A stretch of DNA of 45,108 nucleotides from a virus. Every line of letters begins with the position of its first letter. The stretch's first letter is position 1. Location: the UHGV virus genome UHGV-0324336; one strand, given 5' to 3'. Positions 3,552 through 26,110 of the stretch are shown here, piece after piece. The notes beneath the pieces were generated by a model. The model saw nothing but the letters and a program-made list of their open reading frames with translations, did no database searches and was not told the origin of the DNA. Made by a program: the position numbers and the translations under genes.

Positions 3552-3664
3552 GGATATTTATCAGGATTTATCGGCTTCAAATCCCCGGATATGTTAAATC
3601 TTACCTCACCAGTGATGGGCACTGGCGGGAGGAGGATGTCAATCTGATAAACACCGAGGCGACT

Positions 3665-3925
3665 ATGGATTACACAAATCTACCAAAACAAACTTTTGCT
3701 GATTTAATCGCACTCAGGCAAGCAGTCGTAGCTCTAATCAACTTGTTGCCGGAGAAGGAAAAGGAATTAGTTAAAGCGCTTCTTAACAGAACTGCCGCCG
3801 ATTTTTCATCATATCCACTGACAGATGACCTTGCGGACCTTCCTGAATTAATTGCAGCGTCCGCCATTAAGCTTACTGAAGAGATTTACCCTCCTCAAAA
3901 ATCTTCACAAAATTCCTGCGAGTAA
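3665..3925 (+). CDS. hypothetical 86-aa protein encoded antisense within the lysis cassette gap
   Basis: ORF track; GAGG 5 nt upstream of ATG; fills a 320-nt gap with no minus-strand ATG ORF; 3' end overlaps convergent 183-aa gene by 53 nt. Confidence 0.3.
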   Translation: MDYTNLPKQTFADLIALRQAVVALINLLPEKEKELVKALLNRTAADFSSYPLTDDLADLPELIAASAIKLTEEIYPPQKSSQNSCE

Positions 3926-4424
3926 CTTCAATGCAATAATCGTAAAACGCCGCAAACTGCTCATCGCGGCGTTTTTTTTCATCTTCAGAAGGAATCAGCA
4001 CCAACAATTTTTTATTCAGATCAGCGACGCTGCTCTCCAGTTTTTCAATGGGCGATTCAATATCATCTTTTTCTGACCGCAATGCCGTCGGTGGCGTCTT
4101 CAGAGAACCTGTAATTCTTCCCGGTAGCTTTCCTTTGTAGGTTATCCACACATTCTGCGCCTCTAAAATTACCGGGCGCTTTTCCGGCGACAGCTCATCT
4201 CCTTCACATAACCCGGCAGCAACATCCAGGAAGAACTGTCTGATGCTCCTTCTCGCTGCTGCCTCATAAAACTCCAGCGCGGCACCTTCAACACGGTCCA
4301 GCGAGATGTCCAAGCCAAAAATTTCACCGTCAAAGCGTTTTTTGTCCCGTAACGCTAAAGTTACCGTAACTTTATTCTCAAAATTGCGGATCCCTTTCAC
4401 AATCAGTTCATAGTTTTGAGTCAT
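3873..4424 (-). CDS. hypothetical 183-aa protein between holin and endolysin (YdfR position)
   Basis: ORF track; start 5 nt after holin stop; same position as ydfR between essQ and rrrQ in Qin; no motif recognised. Confidence 0.6.
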   Translation of the reverse strand: MTQNYELIVKGIRNFENKVTVTLALRDKKRFDGEIFGLDISLDRVEGAALEFYEAAARRSIRQFFLDVAAGLCEGDELSPEKRPVILEAQNVWITYKGKLPGRITGSLKTPPTALRSEKDDIESPIEKLESSVADLNKKLLVLIPSEDEKKRRDEQFAAFYDYCIEVTRRNFVKIFEEGKSLQ

Positions 4425-4428
4425 TGAA

Positions 4429-4644
4429 TTACTCTCCCCGTGCAGCCTTACGCTTGTCTTCTCTGATTTTGAAGTACAGATTTGTCAGATAAGTCAGGAA
4501 GCCCAGAACCAGACTCCCCAGTACACCAATCGCAGCCCACTGTGACGGACTGACCTGATCAAGCCACTGTAAAAACCAGTAGCCAGCACTGCCTGCGGAG
4601 GTGCCGTAGGCAATGCCCGTTGAAATTTTGTCCATGGATTTCAT
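4429..4644 (-). CDS. class II pinholin, phage 21 S-like (dual-start MKSM)
   Basis: 71 aa; MKSMDK dual-start motif and two TM segments essentially as in S21 (recalled); directly upstream of SAR endolysin. Confidence 0.9.
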
Positions 4645-4935
4645 AGCCTCACCTCCGCAAATAACGGATGGCGTAGTTTTACACTGAGAAATGAAAGGGA
4701 TTTGAAAAGAAAAAACCGCAAAAGCGGGCGAAACGATATATACAGAAAGGAAAGCACTCTATCCAACAAACCACCCACAGTTAATCGGAATAAAAGCAGA
4801 GTGCTTATGAATGATCGCCTGCCCGAAGGTTAGTATTTCTGCACAGCAATTTTGCAAAAAAAGGCGATCATTCATAACTTAAACGTCTTTCAGTCACTCC
4901 GGGATTTCCCATCATCGCAGACTGAAAGACTCTAA

Positions 4936-5457: not shown

Positions 5458-6130
5458 CACTTTGCTTTGAAAATGCCGCCTTTTGTTTTGAACGTGTTCT
5501 CATTACAAACAATAAAGCCTCACTATCAAGTCGGTGAAAAATGTGTTTCATTGCAACCCAGTGACGAGTAAATGTTTTGGACCAGTTTTTAGTTGTCACT
5601 CCCGCCAGTAATGCCAGCTCCTGGTATTCATAACCTTCCCCACCAAAAAGTTCTGCTTTTACTGCCTGCGCCGCCAGCCAGATTAATTTTTTCAGGCGTT
5701 CCTGCGTTTTCCCTGCAATTTTTCTGGTACCGGATTGAGTATTAAATTCATTCCACGCCCACTGTGTTATCGCGATCTGATATTCCCAACAAATAATCCC
5801 GCTGTAACACCACAACAACCAGGCTTTATGATGTTCTTCAAGAGACAGAACTGCCCGTCGCCATGATGATGTCGAAAACTCAACCTGACTTACCAGAGCA
5901 ATTGATGAGCCTTTCGCCAGTGATTGTTTTCCCGGTATCGGTGGACTATCCCGCGTTATCATTCTTCCAGTCACTTCATCGCGGTACCGGATTTTTTTAC
6001 GCCTGTAACGCCCTGTATCAAACATGGCATTCTCCTGCCAGGCTTCAAGCTGACCTTTTGTTGCCCCACTCAAATCAGCGGTAGCGATAATGAGCTGCTC
6101 ACGCACAAACTGTAAATACTGGTTATTCAT
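5441..6130 (-). CDS. putative late-gene antiterminator Q-family protein (229 aa)
   Basis: Position after rusA and before the late promoter/terminator and lysis genes; ATGA overlap with rusA; family not confirmed from sequence. Confidence 0.5.
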   Translation of the reverse strand: MNNQYLQFVREQLIIATADLSGATKGQLEAWQENAMFDTGRYRRKKIRYRDEVTGRMITRDSPPIPGKQSLAKGSSIALVSQVEFSTSSWRRAVLSLEEHHKAWLLWCYSGIICWEYQIAITQWAWNEFNTQSGTRKIAGKTQERLKKLIWLAAQAVKAELFGGEGYEYQELALLAGVTTKNWSKTFTRHWVAMKHIFHRLDSEALLFVMRTRSKQKAAFSKQSVAKVD

Positions 6131-6486
6131 GCGCGCTCCAGTTCTGTGATTTTTATCCCCAGCCGACCACCAGGAACAGGCAGTCCGCGCACAATATTGA
6201 TTTCATCAAACTGCTCGTCGTCTATGAGAAGTCCGGCATGCGTCAGCGCATCCAGTGGTGCCTTCAGGATATTGTCCAGGTCGCGGCGGCGCTTATCCGG
6301 TGGCTCTGCAATAATTTTTATTGCCAGCCTTCCGGACAGGTTTAATTTCAACCGCTGCTGGCGAACAATTAGTGCCACATCACGGCGATAACGCTCACCG
6401 ACTTTTGATACAAAATATGTGTTGCCACGACGTCGCCAGTAAGTATTCACCGTCGGCGGATAAGGCAAAACAAACTCTATACGCAT
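6127..6486 (-). CDS. rusA: RusA-family Holliday-junction resolvase
   Basis: 119 aa; PDxRRRDLDN…LDAL…GxxxDD motifs match RusA (120 aa, …RRRDLDNLQKAAFDALT… as recalled). Confidence 0.85.
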   Translation of the reverse strand: MRIEFVLPYPPTVNTYWRRRGNTYFVSKVGERYRRDVALIVRQQRLKLNLSGRLAIKIIAEPPDKRRRDLDNILKAPLDALTHAGLLIDDEQFDEINIVRGLPVPGGRLGIKITELERA

Positions 6487-6498
6487 CAGTAACCTCTT

Positions 6499-7620
6499 TT
6501 ACCCGAGCACGCCGGTTGCAAAGGCGTGATCAAGAAAACGAAAAATTAAATCAACCTGGGAACCATGCTTTTCTTCGAACGCCAGCGGATCCGCATGAAG
6601 TTCGTTGTGATGTTCCCGGCACAACGGTAGCGTGAAAATATCGTGGGCCTTTGTTCCCATCCCTCCCTGACCGTGACCAATCAGGTGATGGGGATCGTCG
6701 GCTGGCTGACCACAACACGCACACGGCTGTGTCTTCACCCAGCGCGTATATTTCTCATTTACCCAACGGCGACGTTTAGGTCGCCTCATGAAAGATTCCG
6801 GAGACTCCGGATCAACGGTGATGCATACCACCGTCTTTTCCTGTGGTGGGTTCTGTTGCTGGTGGGCATGAGGCAACGGCGCAAGATTTTTTGTGCGCTG
6901 CTTCAGTATGCTGGTGGTGGTCTGCTCTCCCGGTACGATGTCGCTTTCGCGGTACAAGGAGCGGATTTTTTCCGCACGTAACCCCAGAGAACGACGTAAT
7001 ACTGCCTCCGGAAGCGCGTCCGCCACCTGATTGCAGACCGCCCACCAGGATAATTCAGCCAGCGACAATTCCCGCTCCTGCGTGCCATTCATTGCATGGC
7101 GTATGACGTCAATCATCCATGCTGACAGGTTTTGATGAGCAAGTTGCCCGAGTGATTCGGATGTCTGGTCACGCAACTGGTTGTCGCAGTGCCAGCACAA
7201 CACCATCGCGCCGGTACCGTAACAATGTATGACGATTTCACTGTGATGATAGTCACCATGAGGCCACTGGCAGGATTTGACATGACGCAACAGCCAGTCA
7301 GACAGTGCCCCAGCGCCGCCAGCAGCACGAATCACCCGCTCATCGCTGAAAAATGGCAGTAATGATTTATCCTCCGCCAGCGGCTGGCGAACGGCAGGGA
7401 CGACTCCGGACGGCAAACCGCGCATGCTTTTCGGTTCAGGCTCCACCAGCACTCGAGGGTTATGAAATACTTGCATGGATTCACGGCCCGGCCTAAGGAC
7501 CACCAGCCCGAGTTCCGGTACCAGAACAGGTCGAAGTAATATCCGCACGTTACCTCCAGATCCGTTGCTGGTATGTGCGGGATGGGCGCGGTGGGCGTTC
7601 GGAATAAGGGAGCCTGACAT
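6499..7620 (-). CDS. HNH-motif protein, DUF968/YdfU-like (start uncertain; alternative ATG at 7476)
   Basis: C-terminal CACCG…DPHHL…GG…N…CREHHNELH is a typical HNH/ββα-Me arrangement; position matches ydfU in Qin. Confidence 0.5.
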   Translation of the reverse strand: MSGSLIPNAHRAHPAHTSNGSGGNVRILLRPVLVPELGLVVLRPGRESMQVFHNPRVLVEPEPKSMRGLPSGVVPAVRQPLAEDKSLLPFFSDERVIRAAGGAGALSDWLLRHVKSCQWPHGDYHHSEIVIHCYGTGAMVLCWHCDNQLRDQTSESLGQLAHQNLSAWMIDVIRHAMNGTQERELSLAELSWWAVCNQVADALPEAVLRRSLGLRAEKIRSLYRESDIVPGEQTTTSILKQRTKNLAPLPHAHQQQNPPQEKTVVCITVDPESPESFMRRPKRRRWVNEKYTRWVKTQPCACCGQPADDPHHLIGHGQGGMGTKAHDIFTLPLCREHHNELHADPLAFEEKHGSQVDLIFRFLDHAFATGVLG

Positions 7621-7828
7621 AGATTATCCAGTGACGATAATCGAGGCTGAGGGCTTTCTTAATCTCGTATCCGCGTCTGCGATAGTTATGAATTAGCCAT
7701 TCGGCCTGTTCTTCAGTACATGGGTCATGCTGGAACCAGTCAGATTTGAAAGTGCGGGAACGCCGCCCGTGCCTGCTGGCAAAGACGGCAGAATCATCAG
7801 AATTGTGTAATTTGGTATCGTGCGCCAT
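7550..7828 (-). CDS. hypothetical protein (92 aa from MAHDTK start), rem position
   Basis: ORF track 7550..7909; the upstream part of that ORF overlaps a strong terminator, so the ATG at 7828 is preferred. Confidence 0.3.
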   Translation of the reverse strand: MAHDTKLHNSDDSAVFASRHGRRSRTFKSDWFQHDPCTEEQAEWLIHNYRRRGYEIKKALSLDYRHWIIYVRLPYSERPPRPSRTYQQRIWR

Positions 7829-7898
7829 CGGTTGTCTCTGCTGGCGCAGCAGGTGCCAGTTGTTCAGGCTGGCGTGCGAATTGTAAACCAGAATGCCA

Positions 7899-7926
7899 GG
7901 AAAAAACAAAACCCGCCGAAGCGGGT
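7899..7926 (-). terminator. intrinsic terminator downstream of lipoprotein moron
   Basis: Minus strand ACCCGC-ttcg-GCGGGT followed by TTTGTTTTTT. Confidence 0.6.
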
Positions 7927-8124
7927 ATGCTAAAACAAACTGAAAGTAATATACCGGACTTGTAAAGGAACGATAGAATAATTATTGGATTAAACCCTGA
8001 CTCAATCCAGATTTCATAGGCAACAACTACGGACTAATCATCACAGTCATGTTTGATAGACTTAGTCCACATTGGGTGAGGGTTTACGGCGTTTTCACTA
8101 ATAATTTATCGTCCAAGCTATACA

Positions 8125-8517
8125 CTACTGCCCTGTTTTAACGAAGTTTTTAAAGGAAACAACTGCCTGATAGGGGTTTGGTTGACAGCCAAACATATTA
8201 TCGCAAAAAGGCTTGATGAAAATTCTTGAGGATCCATCTTCATTTGGCATTTTACTCACTTGATAAGCGAGGAATGGACTATTTGGAGAGGGATTATAAG
8301 TGGAAATTAGCGTGTCTGTCGCCGTTTGAATTTTCCATGAGGAATTATTAGCCAACCAGAATTGCGCTCGTTTCCAATAAAAGTCACATTGCTTTTCATC
8401 ATTACATGTTAGTGGCTTCATTGCTTCTGCTTTCAACGCTGGATCGACCTTTGCTGCACACCCTCCCAACATTACTGTTGCAATCATTACACCTGCGACT
8501 AAAACAAGTTTCTTCAT
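8125..8517 (-). CDS. secreted lipoprotein (moron), function unknown
   Basis: Signal peptide MKKLVLVAGVMIATVMLGGC with lipobox LGGC; several Cys in mature part; flanked by terminators. Confidence 0.7.
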   Translation of the reverse strand: MKKLVLVAGVMIATVMLGGCAAKVDPALKAEAMKPLTCNDEKQCDFYWKRAQFWLANNSSWKIQTATDTLISTYNPSPNSPFLAYQVSKMPNEDGSSRIFIKPFCDNMFGCQPNPYQAVVSFKNFVKTGQ

Positions 8518-8570
8518 CTCCCTGCCCCATCAATAAAAGTTCGGTTCTCTAATAACTAGAGTTAATCAAC

Positions 8571-8592
8571 GGAAAAAACGCCGAAGCGGGTT
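8571..8592 (-). terminator. weak intrinsic terminator 3' of hok
   Basis: Minus strand CCCGC-ttcg-GCG followed by TTTTTT; short stem. Confidence 0.35.
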
Positions 8593-8660
8593 AAGTGCGG
8601 GTGCGTTGAGGATGCCTGACACATCAGAGGTGGCGAGGGATTTCTCCCCCGCCAGGTCTC

Positions 8661-8816
8661 TTACTCCTCAGGTTCGTAAGCTGTGAAGACAGCGACCTCC
8701 GTCTGGCCGGTTCGGATTCGTACCTCGCAGAGGTCTTTCCTCGTTACCAGTGCCGTCACAATGACGGTTAAACAGATGACGATCAGGGCGATTAACATCG
8801 CCTTTTGCTGCTTCAT
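8661..8816 (-). CDS. hok: Hok/Gef-family type I toxin (51 aa)
   Basis: MKQQKAMLIALIVICLTVIVTALVTRKDLCEVRIRTGQTEVAVFTAYEPEE matches the Hok consensus (…CLTLL…LTRKSLCEIR…REVAAFMAYE); in-frame upstream extension in the ORF track may be mok-like. Confidence 0.8.
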   Translation of the reverse strand: MKQQKAMLIALIVICLTVIVTALVTRKDLCEVRIRTGQTEVAVFTAYEPEE

Positions 8817-9463
8817 AGCCTGCTTCTCCTTGCCTTTCGGCACGTAAGAGGCTAACCTAGATTTGCCGTTCATAGATTGAGCCTCAGATTAATGTTAAGC
8901 GTCTTGCAGGACGCGTAATGTTAACTGGGGCTTTTCTCTATCTGCCTTTGGTGTTCATGCCTGAGGCAGATAGCCTCAAGCACCCGCAGCAATTCTACTT
9001 AACTCACGTCACCTCGCCAATATAAAATCAATCAGAAAGGCGATCCATAAGAACAACAGCAAGGCAATAAATTGCCATTACAGCAGCAATAGCCAGCGCA
9101 CATTTGAGAACCAGCACCACAACCTCCTGTATTGGACGTACACCAGTCCTGATAAATATGAGGCTGTCTCGTCAGTGATTCAATACAACTATTGGGTATA
9201 GTTTCTGTGATTTTGTTCTGTAGAAATGGAACACAACAACCAGTCACCACCAGCACTTCTTTAAATACGCCAAGTCCGACGCAAGCTAACTTTCTAGTCC
9301 GCTTTGAGCGAGAAGAGGAAGTTCATAATTATTACCAGTACAGCGTATTACTAATTATTTTTACACTGAAAGCATTGAGGTGAGAAGGGGGTTTTTATGC
9401 TTGATTTAATTATAAAATTGCAGGAAAGTGACCTTGTATCAGCTGATGATGAGTGGGTAAAAA

Positions 9464-10843
9464 ATGTGGAAAGATAAGTATATTTGTCATAAATGCGTGA
9501 ACGATAAATATGTCATGCAGCATATAATAAAAACCGGAAATAATGTTCGGATTTGCTCTTACTGCAAAAGGAAGCGTAAAAACATCCACCTCAAATATAT
9601 TCTCAAGATGATGAATGAGGTTTTTGAGTACTACTATGATATGTATGAGGATATCTATGATTCCGGGCGCGGTGATAGCGCGCAGGATGTCATCTGCGGA
9701 GAACTGGGCGTCGAATGGGACGTAGCTGAAGATATTTATGAATTTCTTTGTGATGAATATAATCCGCATAACGATTATGACTACATCCGGTATAATGATG
9801 GGTTTGTTTATCGGCACATAAATCACTATAGCGGAGAGCTTGCGCATACCTGGAGTAAAGCCACTGACTCCCTTATGAAAGAAACACGATATTTTAACCG
9901 TGAAGTTAATGATTTCCTGGATTCACTTTTCAGTGATATCGATAAACTAAAAAACAGAGACAGTAATTCACCGATAAAAACTCTGACTGATGAGGTTCAT
10001 CTTTTTCGTGCAAGGGTCTTTGAGGACCAAGAGGAAGTAAAGCAAGCCTTGGAGCAGCCCGAGAAAAATTTTGGACCTCCCCCATCAACTTTGGCTCGGT
10101 CGGGCCGTATGAACGCACAGGGGATTTCAGTATTTTACGGTGCAACCTCAGTGAATTTGGCAATTGCTGAAGTAAGGCCGCCCGTCGGCAGTATTGTAGT
10201 AACGGCCTGTTTTGTACCGTTACGCGAGCTAAAAGTGCTGGACATTTCTGCCCTTGACTCGATTAGTTTCGGCTCAGGTAGTAAATTTGATCCTCAGACT
10301 CGCAAAACCAGTGAGCGCGCGATTTTTTTCAGTACGCTTTCCCGTAAGTTGACGCTTCCTACTTTTGGAAAAAGGCAGGACAGTGATTACCTCATCACCC
10401 AAGTGGTTGCCGATTACCTAGGTGACCGAAATAAATTTAAGCTTGATGGTGTCAGCTTTAAATCTACCCAGGTAGATGCCAACGGTGAGGATGCTGAGAT
10501 AGGATATAATGTCGTTCTGTTTAATAAGTCTTCCGGCGTCAGGCATGCCGCAGATAAATCTCGCCGATATAATGTTGAGATGTATGAACACATCGAAGAT
10601 GACCAGTATGCTTTTGTTCCGGAAATTCAGTTAATAGTTGAGGAACAAATAAAACCGAGACATATGGGTTCATTTTCATCCTCGCATGACAAAAATGATG
10701 CACTACTGTTGAAAACCAACAGTATGACTTATCATAAAATTACTGGTGTAAAATACCAAACAAGTGAGACGGAGATTCATCAGGGAGATAGTGTTCGAAA
10801 ACAAGAGCCACCTCAGAAATTCGATGACCTGATGGACTTCTGA
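9464..10843 (+). CDS. RES-domain protein (putative NAD+-targeting effector) with N-terminal CxxC…CxxC zinc-ribbon domain
   Basis: Candidate RES triad R215 (GRMN), E236 (LAIAEV), S331 (DGVSFKS) with intervening YG; N-terminal C8-x2-C11…C31-x2-C34; AT-rich codon usage. Confidence 0.65.
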   Translation: MWKDKYICHKCVNDKYVMQHIIKTGNNVRICSYCKRKRKNIHLKYILKMMNEVFEYYYDMYEDIYDSGRGDSAQDVICGELGVEWDVAEDIYEFLCDEYNPHNDYDYIRYNDGFVYRHINHYSGELAHTWSKATDSLMKETRYFNREVNDFLDSLFSDIDKLKNRDSNSPIKTLTDEVHLFRARVFEDQEEVKQALEQPEKNFGPPPSTLARSGRMNAQGISVFYGATSVNLAIAEVRPPVGSIVVTACFVPLRELKVLDISALDSISFGSGSKFDPQTRKTSERAIFFSTLSRKLTLPTFGKRQDSDYLITQVVADYLGDRNKFKLDGVSFKSTQVDANGEDAEIGYNVVLFNKSSGVRHAADKSRRYNVEMYEHIEDDQYAFVPEIQLIVEEQIKPRHMGSFSSSHDKNDALLLKTNSMTYHKITGVKYQTSETEIHQGDSVRKQEPPQKFDDLMDF

Positions 10844-11304: not shown

Positions 11305-12228
11305 TTAGTGTAATTCCGAAAGGAGCCTAGTAACAAACTCTTTATATGTTGTAGCTTTATAATCAAGCTTACGGTTTTCCTGTCTCATCACCGCGATGAG
11401 AAGACAAGCTGTAAAACACCAGAAGGGCGATGAATCTGAAAGGTTGTACCCCCCTATCATTGTTTGAATCCTTACTGCTATAGATGGATACTCTTCACCA
11501 CCCCATTTATCGATATCTGATGTTAAAGCGTGTATAGTAAAGGCGGCAAGTGTTATCCCCATTGCTCGTTTTTGCATGACCTCTTCATAGGTATGCCCAG
11601 CTTTTTTAGCATAGACTCCGACGCCCTTAGTTATATATTCACGAGCCCAAGAGTCACAGGCTAACTCTTCTTCATCCTTCTCTTGGGGATTTTCATGTTT
11701 TTTTTCTTCGGCTCGTGCTTGAACATGTTTATACTCATGAAGTATAGAAAAAGACAATGCTAATGCTACTAGATCAAAAACAGCCTGTTCTTGAATATTA
11801 TTCAAACTATCTCGCGCATCTGTTGGAAAAGGAATATCTTGAGGCCATGTAATATCAGCCGTATTCGCAACGCTTAGCAAAGACTTTGAAATATACAAAT
11901 GCTGTTTATAATTTAGTTCAAATTGGCCACGTTCTTCATCAGATTCTAAAGCCGACTCTAACGTCACACCTAGTAAGCATGCTTTTACTAGGGCTGGAGC
12001 ATATGTCTCAATCGTAAACCATGTACTAAACCCAAATAACCAAAAGAAATCGATAGTTTTAGAGTCAAACTCGATGCGCCTACTAGTTGCATTCATTGTT
12101 GATCCTAGGGCATCCTCTGCAAGTTCGACCGTGTGTTTATAGCTCTTCCAGGTCTGACAAAGTTCATCAGCATTCTCAGGAACAGCCCCTCTTAGGAGGT
12201 TTAAAACTATAGTATCTAGTGATGGCAT
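11305..12228 (-). CDS. putative zinc metallopeptidase (HExxH), possibly Lit-like phage-exclusion protease
   Basis: Single HEYKH motif at residues 164-168 of 307 aa; size and motif position close to e14 Lit (297 aa, HExxH ~160-164, recalled); AT-rich. Confidence 0.5.
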   Translation of the reverse strand: MPSLDTIVLNLLRGAVPENADELCQTWKSYKHTVELAEDALGSTMNATSRRIEFDSKTIDFFWLFGFSTWFTIETYAPALVKACLLGVTLESALESDEERGQFELNYKQHLYISKSLLSVANTADITWPQDIPFPTDARDSLNNIQEQAVFDLVALALSFSILHEYKHVQARAEEKKHENPQEKDEEELACDSWAREYITKGVGVYAKKAGHTYEEVMQKRAMGITLAAFTIHALTSDIDKWGGEEYPSIAVRIQTMIGGYNLSDSSPFWCFTACLLIAVMRQENRKLDYKATTYKEFVTRLLSELH

Positions 12229-15773: not shown

Positions 15774-16400
15774 ATGAGCAAGCAAACAATATCTGAACGC
15801 ATAACCCAACGTATGCATGCGCTAAACCTGAAAGGCAAAGACCTTGTCAATGCCACTGGCGCATCAAAAGGCTCCGTAAGTCAATGGATGAACGGTGGAG
15901 GAGCGCCGTCCTCGCGTTACATAAGTTCACTGGCAAAGATATTGAAAGTAAACGAAAATTGGCTTCTTAATGGAGGAGAGTTAAATACAGGTGATTCGCT
16001 TGATCTATCTTTACCGCCGATAAAAACGGTTCCGCTACTATCAGCAAGCTGGAGTGATTATATGAAAAATTCCTCAATAACCTCTTGTGTGCAGCTTGTC
16101 GGAGAAATCCCGGCCAATACCTTTGCAGTTGTTCTAGAGAGTGACAGTATGTCAACATCTGGTGGGGGAGTTTCCATCCCAAATGGTTCAACAGTTTTTG
16201 TTGATCCCGATCGAACCGTACAACCAGGAAATATTGTCCTTGCCTTACCCAAAGGGACCACAACACCTGTCATTCGTAAACTGGAGATAGAAGGGCCGGA
16301 TATTCTTTTAGTCCCCACGAATCCTCGCTACCCTTCAATTATGCTGGATGATCTATCTTGCATATTGGGCGTATGCTTTAAAATTCAACAAGATATTTAA
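15774..16400 (+). CDS. CI-like prophage repressor (HTH_XRE + S24 LexA-type autopeptidase)
   Basis: N-terminal HTH (ATGASKGSVSQWMNG); C-terminal S24 signature with Ser in ESDSMS and Lys in VIRKL. Confidence 0.85.
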   Translation: MSKQTISERITQRMHALNLKGKDLVNATGASKGSVSQWMNGGGAPSSRYISSLAKILKVNENWLLNGGELNTGDSLDLSLPPIKTVPLLSASWSDYMKNSSITSCVQLVGEIPANTFAVVLESDSMSTSGGGVSIPNGSTVFVDPDRTVQPGNIVLALPKGTTTPVIRKLEIEGPDILLVPTNPRYPSIMLDDLSCILGVCFKIQQDI

Positions 16401-25510: not shown

Positions 25511-26110
25511 TCAGAATTTATAACCGACACCCACGATGAAACCGTCAGTGCGCCAGTCACCACTGCCGGAACCTTCATAAGCAAGGTCAATGGCCACGGA
25601 TTCGGTCGGGTTAAACTGCACGCCAGCCCCCCACGCCAGAGACGTGTTGCTGTGGCGACCGTCATCACTTCCGGTCAGCACATCGTGCGTTTTCCCCTTG
25701 TTGTCAGTTACGCGGAGATAATCCCCGGAGAAGGTCGACACACGGCTGTAAGCCATACCCGCCATCGCATAAGCACTGAACCATTCATTCACGCGTACAG
25801 ATGGCCCCGCCATCATGCTGAACCAGCGGTTACGCACGGAATCTTCATGCCAGCGGGTATCGCTGTAATGCGTTTTTTGCTCATCTTTGGCATTGGCATA
25901 ACTGAATGACGTCACCAGCCCCAGCGTGTCCGTAAATTCATAACGGTATTTCACGTTAATGCCCTTCAGGTCATCACTGCCTGGCATATCAGTATGGGTC
26001 TGAAGATACCCGGCGCTTAGTGTGGACTGATGCTCTGCTGCGCTCGCTGGCGTACCAGCGGCAACCAGCCAGACTACTGCGGACAGAATAACAGCACATA
26101 ATTTACGCAT
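25511..26110 (-). CDS. lom: Lom outer-membrane protein (Ail/PagC family)
   Basis: Signal peptide then beta-barrel OMP sequence ending …GVGYKF; position after J as in lambda. Confidence 0.85.
   Translation of the reverse strand: MRKLCAVILSAVVWLVAAGTPASAAEHQSTLSAGYLQTHTDMPGSDDLKGINVKYRYEFTDTLGLVTSFSYANAKDEQKTHYSDTRWHEDSVRNRWFSMMAGPSVRVNEWFSAYAMAGMAYSRVSTFSGDYLRVTDNKGKTHDVLTGSDDGRHSNTSLAWGAGVQFNPTESVAIDLAYEGSGSGDWRTDGFIVGVGYKF

Follow-up and report, generated by a model that had tools for sequence, protein, structure and literature searches.

A lipoprotein gene inserted at the hokD terminator of an Escherichia coli lambda-like prophage, with a possible role in superinfection exclusion

What does a small lipoprotein gene do in the early operon of a lambda-like prophage, and how did it come to stand there? 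The gene in question occupies positions 8125-8517 (minus strand) of the virus genome UHGV-0324336, a stretch of 45,108 nucleotides (hereafter the window) that is an Escherichia coli lambda-like prophage. It lies, as the initial annotation had placed it, between hok and nin-like genes, with hokD on one side and a 92-residue gene, DUF968/YdfU, RusA and Q on the other. That annotation read the locus as a moron flanked by terminators, with its own upstream space and a product of the Bor, Cor or TraT kind. It was right in kind, in that this is a lipoprotein cargo gene, and wrong on the upstream terminator, on the gene's own promoter and on the kinship to Bor, Cor and TraT; a gene placed between hok and the terminator that belongs to hok describes the layout better. 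We tentatively regard it as a horizontally mobile accessory (moron-type) lipoprotein gene for superinfection exclusion, a reading to which we give somewhat less than an even chance.

The stretch 8125-8517 is a real gene, beyond a chance open reading frame, because it is annotated (RefSeq WP_000737636.1, labelled 'hypothetical protein'), conserved in other genera and constrained, with a ratio of nonsynonymous to synonymous substitution rates (dN/dS) of 0.11, and because AlphaFold2 models its product confidently. It encodes a precursor of 130 residues that begins MKKLVLVAGVMIATVMLGGC and continues AAK. We applied a lipobox rule of the PROSITE PS51257 type, which asks for N-terminal basic residues, an uncharged hydrophobic stretch and [LVI][ASTVI][GAS]C, with the cysteine within residues 15-35. 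The precursor has K2 and K3 among its first seven residues, the uncharged hydrophobic stretch LVLVAGVMIATVM and L-G-G-C20, so the lipobox noted earlier is borne out; residues 1-19 are the predicted signal peptide (8461-8517, minus strand) and Cys20 the predicted lipidated residue (8458-8460, minus strand). In Enterobacteriaceae, a lipoprotein that lacks Asp at position +2 is carried to the outer membrane by the Lol system. Because the +2 residue here is Ala, not Asp, the mature lipoprotein is predicted, by the +2 rule only, to be sorted to the outer membrane via Lol. A strict lipobox is found in 85 of 96 diverse relatives, none of the 85 scored having Asp at +2. The mature domain of about 110 residues holds four further conserved cysteines. 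Across the 96 relatives Cys38, Cys44 and Cys105 are invariant, Cys20 and Cys111 are present in at least 90%, and Trp48, Trp54 and Thr73 are nearly invariant along with these two. Such a pattern is consistent with one cysteine that is lipidated and four that pair, in some combination, as two periplasmic disulfides.

How the gene reached its present position can be read from its borders. It lies in a cassette of 665 bp with a GC content of 39.2%, compared to 53.0% in the downstream flank, 51.9% in hok/sok and 50.1% in the window. A direct repeat (D1) of 19 nucleotides, 17 of them identical, is present at 7908-7926 and 8573-8591, a spacing of 665. To reconstruct the empty site, we joined 7700-7926 to 8592-8800 and used the product as a search query. 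The joined flanks are contiguous in strain AH20K059 (98.2% over 435 nucleotides; locus L079), and at least 80% of the query is covered in 2,703 genomes, about 251 of which show the two-piece occupied form. The uninterrupted hokD-terminator-next-gene site is thus found in roughly 2,450 complete E. coli genomes, and the full module in about 251 of 5,426 (approximately 4.6%). The empty site reads ...CACCCGCAC(G/T)TAACCCGCTTCGGCGGGTTTTGTTTTTTCCTGGCATTC..., and in it the 92-residue gene directly follows the hokD terminator. When the junctions were aligned with the empty site and with the K-12 hokD region, the left one matched the empty site through ACCCGCTTCGGCG and diverged after it, while the right one matched from ACCCGCTTCGGCGGGTTTTG on. 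Because both junctions fall within a 13-nucleotide repeat inside the hairpin, the segment is inserted at the hokD terminator hairpin and bounded by the 13-nucleotide direct repeat ACCCGCTTCGGCG. In K-12 another cargo gene, rem, fills the slot past the same hokD terminator.

Two other phages suggest where the hairpin at the left junction came from. The same hairpin stands directly 5' of the gene in an Enterobacter phage (CCCGCTTCGGTGGG, after the tape-measure gene) and in locus L068 (ACCCGCTTCGGCGGGTTTTTG), and in both it is followed by a homologous stretch, GCCGTTRA..., and then by the conserved leader TTTACTGATGGGGATAGGGAT. Because these two phages have the same hairpin 5' of the gene, the cassette probably brought along an upstream hairpin of its own and recombined with hok's near-identical terminator. 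The shared hairpin may instead be a chance convergence on a common UUCG-loop terminator.

The rest of the cassette is a non-coding 3' region of 198 nucleotides (7927-8124, minus strand; GC 36%) that is restricted to the lipoprotein gene: it occurs in 255 E. coli genomes, once or twice in each, and never apart from the gene. It shows no unusual structure (fold z-score -0.67 against shuffled sequences) and no coding or DNA similarity to the sequence downstream of the relatives. We considered and rejected a small RNA or a mobile element in this region, which has no Rfam match, is unstructured and always accompanies the gene. About 69 nucleotides (approximately 8010-8078) are missing from 11 of 60 viral-contig copies, and a different stretch of 100 nucleotides from one more; the former deletion sits between the arms of a 16-nucleotide inverted repeat (7991-8006 and 8071-8086).

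The insertion has left the gene with one working terminator. The right junction is an intact intrinsic terminator (7901-7926, minus strand), recognised by scan, folding and alignment, with a stem-loop at 7926-7911 (ACCCGCTTCGGCGGGT) and a T-tail (TTTGTTTTTT) to 7901. It folds at -13.1 kcal/mol (z = -2.3; the K-12 hokD terminator folds at -12.8) and has the same sequence as the hokD terminators of the empty site and of K-12. The strong downstream terminator of the initial annotation therefore stands, and is by origin that of hokD. The stem ACCCGCTTCGGCGGG with a T-rich tail is present in 55 of 58 E. coli copies, exactly in 53 and with an extra G in two. The left junction (8573-8591, minus strand), seen from the direct repeat, folding and alignment, is a degenerate copy of the hokD hairpin, ACCCGCTTCGGCG followed by TTTTTT, in which the 3' half of the stem is gone (GCGGGTTTT became GCGTTTTTT). 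With -5.3 kcal/mol it is no more stable than shuffled sequence (z = 0.19), and the terminator scan did not call it. Fifty-eight copies were scored; one (L012) has unrelated upstream DNA, and all 57 that retain the junction carry the broken hairpin. As a terminator this copy probably leaks or fails to work at all, so that the gene is not flanked by terminators as had been thought.

Similarly, the supposed upstream space of its own amounts to a leader of 55 nucleotides between the T-run and the ATG (8518-8572, minus strand). Its 3' part, TTTTATTGATGGGGCAGGGAG, holds the ribosome-binding region and is conserved in the alignment with relatives in other phages. At the threshold of our scan there was no sigma-70-like promoter on the minus strand of 8518-8660, nor any such site 5' of the gene in L004, L068 and L008; the only nearby minus-strand promoter-like hit falls inside the coding sequence. 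A TGnTAGGAT motif resembling an extended -10 element was found by eye in three relatives, and the E. coli copy lacks it. From the hok stop (8661) to the lipoprotein ATG (8517) there is no terminator-like site. Because no promoter of its own was seen and the upstream terminator is disabled, the gene probably owes its transcription to the hok promoter in lysogens and, once the prophage is induced, to the early-right operon. Transcripts of hok would run through the lipoprotein gene and end at the old hok terminator; the constitutive hok promoter is the proposed source of expression in the lysogen and the early-right operon the proposed source after induction. The gene is in the sense orientation for that operon, because the cI-like gene is divergent and the cro-like, O-like, RusA and Q genes are co-directional with it. 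The classic moron layout originally proposed is thus borne out in the extra DNA, the 39% GC and the terminator, while an own promoter was not seen and the upstream terminator is broken. In relatives from other phages a terminator follows directly 3' of the gene, a different one in each. The cassette would add a 3' extension of 665 nucleotides to the hok mRNA, whose control is by fold-back. Two E. coli loci are arranged otherwise. In L026 about 1.3 kb (approximately 3592-4920), flanked by an 11-nucleotide duplication and resembling an insertion sequence (IS), separates hok from the lipoprotein gene, and in L012 (1-331) unrelated DNA reaches right up to the start codon; either arrangement would sever the lipoprotein gene from the hok promoter.

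The gene is under strong purifying selection. The dN/dS ratio of 0.11 was obtained against the Enterobacter copy (dN = 0.135, dS = 1.23); dS is saturated against the remaining relatives, for which dN is 0.12-0.45. The exact protein occurs on at least 1,000 contigs, and protein identity is 100% in most of the E. coli copies at 60 viral-contig loci, with one frameshifted variant (P0012) on record. Close relatives, at 66-85% identity, come from Enterobacter hormaechei, Pantoea, Phytobacter and metagenomes, and this close phage-borne clade is limited to Enterobacterales. The family at large is far bigger: a profile search, exhaustive over 1.84 billion representatives, returned 1,141 clusters at 50% identity with E up to 0.001, 532 of them with E up to 1e-10. 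The 90%-identity cluster of the query also lists Hok toxins and is represented by an 87-residue fragment; it looks like a clustering artefact, and its size of 1,137 is no count of the lipoprotein. Chromosomal members from Caballeronia and Candidatus Burkholderia (L085, L086, L095) have a long proline-rich C-terminal tail, and at these loci tblastn detected none of the phage tail, hok or nin genes of the kind present in the window.

Searches of domain and family databases give the protein no name. It matches PHROG 16082 (phrog_16082) over its full length (E 2.6e-84, residues 1-130 against profile positions 1-130 of 130), and phrog_4186 weakly; the function of both families is unassigned. Pfam and NCBIfam gave no match, Pfam at E up to 1 producing a chance C4 hit only, and the core domain of the 96 relatives belongs to no Pfam or NCBIfam family, PDZ being the sole match, in fused members. 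Searching PDB sequences with the family profile yielded only noise at the level of the signal peptide, and a literature search by RefSeq accession found no paper. Several named lipoproteins were compared and rejected. Similarity to Cor (PHROG 1119; E 0.0071, residues 1-44 against profile positions 1-39 of 78) is essentially that of a signal peptide, and the PHROG match to a spanin (o-spanin, Rz1) is likewise confined to the signal peptide; Llp was rejected too, with no similarity beyond that region. Neither the protein nor the 96 relatives have a Pfam match to Bor/Iss (Lambda_Bor) or TraT, and Lpp021 of mEp021 (72 residues) gave no BLASTP alignment at E up to 100. The suggested Bor-, Cor- or TraT-like identity was thus not upheld.

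The predicted structure is well defined and similarly anonymous. The AlphaFold2 model, built from a 12-sequence alignment, has a mean predicted local distance difference test (pLDDT) score of 84 and a predicted template modelling (pTM) score of 0.72. The mature domain reaches a pLDDT of about 90, with 10-residue blocks from residue 31 onward at 84-96, and the signal peptide is disordered. The modelled topology runs helix, short strand, long helix, four strands and C-terminal helix, a helix-grip alpha/beta fold of a common type that names no function. Its structural neighbours show a generic resemblance only: Flpp3 of Francisella (DUF3568; the best), the N-terminal domain of BamC and KA1 domains, at 5-13% identity, and also DUF4468 and Bet v 1/START-like proteins at 0-13%. 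Foldseek gave no match below E = 0.01 in the PDB and none below E 0.02 among the BFVD viral models, and the FhuA-Llp complex was absent among the structure matches listed. For DUF3568 itself, neither the lipoprotein nor its relatives have a Pfam match, and the Foldseek E value is above 0.01.

In the absence of a name from homology, the strongest indication of function comes from where the relatives are found: in five distinct slots of the lambda-like tail-tip cluster H-M-L-K-I-J. The slot between H (the tape measure) and M is occupied in Enterobacter (81% identical, four independent contigs), and that between M and L in locus L078 (66% identical). The K/I slot is used by a metagenomic phage, in which the gene lies beside a Fic-domain gene, and by Pseudomonas fontis and Pseudomonas sp. 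MIACH (42% identical). In L067 and L068 the gene lies 5' of I and is followed by a second, unrelated lipoprotein gene, and in Pantoea it sits between I and J. A remnant in Phytobacter adjoins gpM. Outside the tail cluster, a phage that carries a diversity-generating retroelement (DGR) has a distant member next to its cI-like repressor, and in Plesiomonas the gene is about 1.2 kb from a DUF968 gene, like the nin-region setting in E. coli. The second lipoprotein genes of L067 (5386-5784; 132 residues) and L068 (5344-5679; 111 residues) are each joined to the first gene by a TGATATG stop/start overlap and differ from each other as well as from the first. In L076 a Fic-domain gene (5855-6346) shares the K-to-I gap with the lipoprotein relative, which makes this gap a multi-cargo site.

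A secreted lipoprotein is no part of the virion, yet genes of this family have been inserted repeatedly and independently in the tail-tip cluster, which argues for a function in entry or adsorption. Superinfection exclusion is therefore the leading hypothesis, held with a confidence that falls a little short of even; of the two roles named in the initial annotation, it is the more plausible in view of the tail-tip placement of the relatives, and serum resistance found no support. In the proposed mechanism, Lgt, Lsp and Lnt would lipidate Cys20, Lol would deliver the lipoprotein to the inner leaflet of the outer membrane, and the four remaining conserved cysteines would form two periplasmic disulfides that would lend stability to a compact domain, about 110 residues long, with the helix-grip fold. 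The lipoprotein would then bind an envelope component needed by incoming lambda-like tails and so exclude the superinfecting phage, which is the least certain step; it may also keep released progeny from adsorbing to debris. Candidate targets are the periplasmic face of an outer-membrane receptor, as with T5 Llp on FhuA, and a periplasmic step of tail-tip or tape-measure penetration.

The J protein calls for caution about this mechanism. The last 300 residues of J in this prophage and in the phages with 68-79% identical lipoproteins align at 21-30% over sub-regions, and the extreme ends are unrelated; the C-terminus of the prophage's own J matches VT1-Sakai/PPompW-type phages. No co-variation of the lipoprotein with the receptor-binding end of J was seen. 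The divergent J ends, and the lack of linkage between J and the lipoprotein gene in E. coli, give no support to a one-to-one pairing of the lipoprotein with a receptor-binding domain. The target may instead be a periplasmic face that orthologous receptors have conserved, or a similarly conserved step in the penetration of the tail tip or tape measure. The BamC-like fold and the PDZ fusions of some relatives are a weak hint of affinity for beta-barrel proteins of the outer membrane. A bolder version of the exclusion hypothesis would have an unnamed family of disulfide-bonded outer-membrane lipoproteins accompany lambda-like tail-tip modules as a dedicated partner, in hosts that range from Enterobacterales to Pseudomonas, blocking a conserved periplasmic entry step and not one receptor, and becoming co-transcribed with hok in E. 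coli through loss of the terminator stem. A block at a conserved step would explain the 68-79% identity despite barely alignable J ends (66-85% across the phage-borne clade), and as a whole this version is doubtful.

Precedents for lipoprotein or membrane-protein cargo beside tail genes are available. The llp gene of T5 adjoins that of the receptor-binding protein pb5, and its product is an exclusion factor established by experiment (PMC9586334); receptor-binding protein loci of Drexlerviridae hold cognate exclusion genes (PMC8594841); Lpp021 and Lpp010 of the mEpimmI coliphages, encoded in the structural cluster, were shown to exclude phages that share their receptor, OmpA or LamB (PMC11893012); and the tail operon of HK97 contains the first moron, gene 15, which prevents the entry of DNA (PMC3594210). 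The lambdoid morons (HK97 gene 15, lambda lom and bor), independent accessory units of transcription defined by Juhala/Hendrix and reviewed in PMC3594210, resemble the present locus in being extra DNA relative to collinear relatives, with deviant GC and a single small envelope-protein gene that ends in an intrinsic terminator within an antiterminated operon, and the tail-operon position of gene 15 recurs among the lipoprotein relatives. Unlike them, this gene has no recognisable promoter of its own and sits in a cassette inside the terminator of a toxin gene, with expression probably from the toxin promoter, and its product is unrelated to gp15, Lom and Bor. Members of the T5 Llp/Cor family (phi80, N15, T1, mEp167; PMC9586334) are small outer-membrane lipoproteins that jam FhuA from the periplasm. 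Shared features are the phage-encoded origin, the lipobox with an outer-membrane signal, predicted disulfides, the location of the relatives' genes beside tail-tip or receptor-binding genes and, plausibly, a block of entry from the periplasmic face; the differences are the lack of any sequence or fold match, an alpha/beta helix-grip domain of about 110 residues in place of about 60, and the lack of co-variation with the J end. As with Lpp021 and Lpp010 (PMC11893012), the relatives' genes lie inside the structural or tail cluster of temperate phages, whereas the E. coli copy lies in the nin region. Finally, Ltp of the Streptococcus thermophilus phage TP-J34 (PMC3952083) and HK97 gp15 are prophage envelope proteins that block DNA injection, not adsorption, a mechanism that would fit a lipoprotein conserved while J ends vary; Ltp differs in its architecture and in its Gram-positive host, and gp15 is an inner-membrane protein.

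Several observations weigh against superinfection exclusion or against expression from the hok promoter. The mature protein, at about 110 residues, has around double the length of the small exclusion lipoproteins described so far; it has no homology to any exclusion factor compared (Cor, Llp, Lpp021), and PADLOC-DB 2.0 returned no family at E up to 1. The divergence of the J ends and the lack of linkage to J in E. coli, described above, tell against a simple pairing with one receptor-binding domain. Our promoter scan was consensus-based, so that a weak non-consensus promoter could escape it and may drive the gene. Finally, many members lie in ordinary chromosomal neighbourhoods without phage genes and some of them are fused to a PDZ domain of the DegP/DegS type, which points to a cellular envelope function as the ancestral role.

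This last observation supports a different explanation, that the gene encodes a captured housekeeping envelope protein of general role (modulation of envelope stress or of the biogenesis of outer-membrane proteins), which would benefit lysogen or phage indirectly and lack a specific anti-phage target. The 1,141 clusters and the many chromosomal members speak for it, as do the C-terminal PDZ domains of the DegP/DegQ/DegS type, a kind that reads the C-termini of outer-membrane proteins, in 12 of 96 sampled members. We consider it unlikely, as it leaves unexplained both the five independent tail-tip slots and the 66-85% identity of the phage-borne clade across genera, and the fold matches are generic, with no Foldseek hit at E below 0.001.

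Periplasmic lipoprotein inhibitors of wall hydrolases form an established class (MliC, PliC and the Tai/Tsi immunity proteins), and the lipoprotein might belong there, neutralising a toxin or enzyme in the periplasm, for which the NlpC/P60-JAB tail-tip protein K of the phage itself or of an incoming one, a lysozyme, a colicin and a type VI amidase are candidates, and thereby guarding the wall of the lysogen or timing the phage's own wall damage. The gene directly adjoins a K-type NlpC/P60 gene in several phages, and two conserved predicted disulfides fit a stable periplasmic binder. Its position relative to K varies, however, with the H/M, M/L and I/J slots also seen, and the E. coli copy is 20 kb from K, which makes such an inhibitor quite unlikely.

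A role in host fitness or virulence, such as serum or complement resistance or adhesion in the manner of Bor/Iss and TraT, would not involve phage entry. The carriers, about 4.6% of complete E. coli genomes, come from humans, poultry, pigs and cattle and include the enteroaggregative strain 042; the same prophage carries Lom, another envelope moron; and Flpp3, the best structural neighbour, is described as a Francisella virulence lipoprotein. These points are outweighed by the missing Pfam similarity to Bor/Iss and TraT, by relatives in the tail-tip clusters of plant and environmental hosts (Pantoea, Phytobacter, Pseudomonas fontis), which a serum role does not explain, and by the +2 rule, which predicts a periplasm-facing protein and not a surface one; we judge this role very unlikely. 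That the gene is a silent passenger, unexpressed for want of a promoter and decaying, as the negative promoter scan, the frameshifted P0012 and occasional IS-type disruptions upstream might suggest, is hardly credible for a gene that is identical at the protein level in most E. coli copies, recurs exactly on so many contigs, is under strong purifying selection and is sense-oriented inside two transcription units.

If superinfection exclusion is its true function, the lipoprotein would represent a structurally new family beside Cor, Llp and Lpp, and a gene carried by about one in twenty complete E. coli genomes could alter host range in phage therapy and typing; if not, it is one more uncharacterised prophage lipoprotein. 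The anatomy of the locus is in any event a concrete, datable case of accessory-gene transfer between phages, in which the crossover in E. coli falls exactly at the CCCGCTTCGGCGGG terminator hairpin that other phages have 5' of the gene, and in which a cargo gene may borrow the promoter of a toxin-antitoxin locus.

An 801-bp stretch that includes the gene is identical in many E. coli chromosomes. The co-directional order there is cro-like, YdaT-like, replication genes, small genes, hokD, the lipoprotein gene, the 92-residue gene, DUF968/YdfU, RusA, Q, tRNAs and lysis genes, with the cI-like repressor (15774-16400; Peptidase_S24 plus helix-turn-helix) divergent. The annotated hokD gene (8661-8816; Pfam HOK_GEF, E 3e-23) and its hok/sok regulatory region together span 8661-8985 on the minus strand, Rfam sok scoring 111.7 bits at 8811-8985 (minus strand), 5' of hokD. 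The complete hok/sok-type regulatory region found here differs from K-12, where hokD instead sits behind relBE. On the other side of the cassette, the annotated 92-residue gene (7550-7828, minus strand) belongs to PHROG 1212 (E 7e-37), whose function is unassigned.

The interval from the replication genes to the nin region holds an accessory, defence-like run made up of hok/sok, a RES protein, a Lit-like peptidase U49 and the lipoprotein. The RES protein (9464-10843, plus strand; 459 residues) is encoded opposite to the early operon and combines a RES domain (E 5e-14) with a HEPN/RES N-terminal domain. Its DNA is low in GC (33-51% per 200-bp window, mostly about 40%), and it has no PADLOC match; the gene looks like defence- or toxin-type cargo. 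The peptidase (11305-12228, minus strand; 307 residues) matches Peptidase_U49 of the Lit family (E 3.7e-7) and is encoded by DNA of 34-43% GC. Just 3' of J, a full-length Ail/Lom gene (25511-26110, minus strand; E 1.5e-127) constitutes a second envelope moron of the same prophage.

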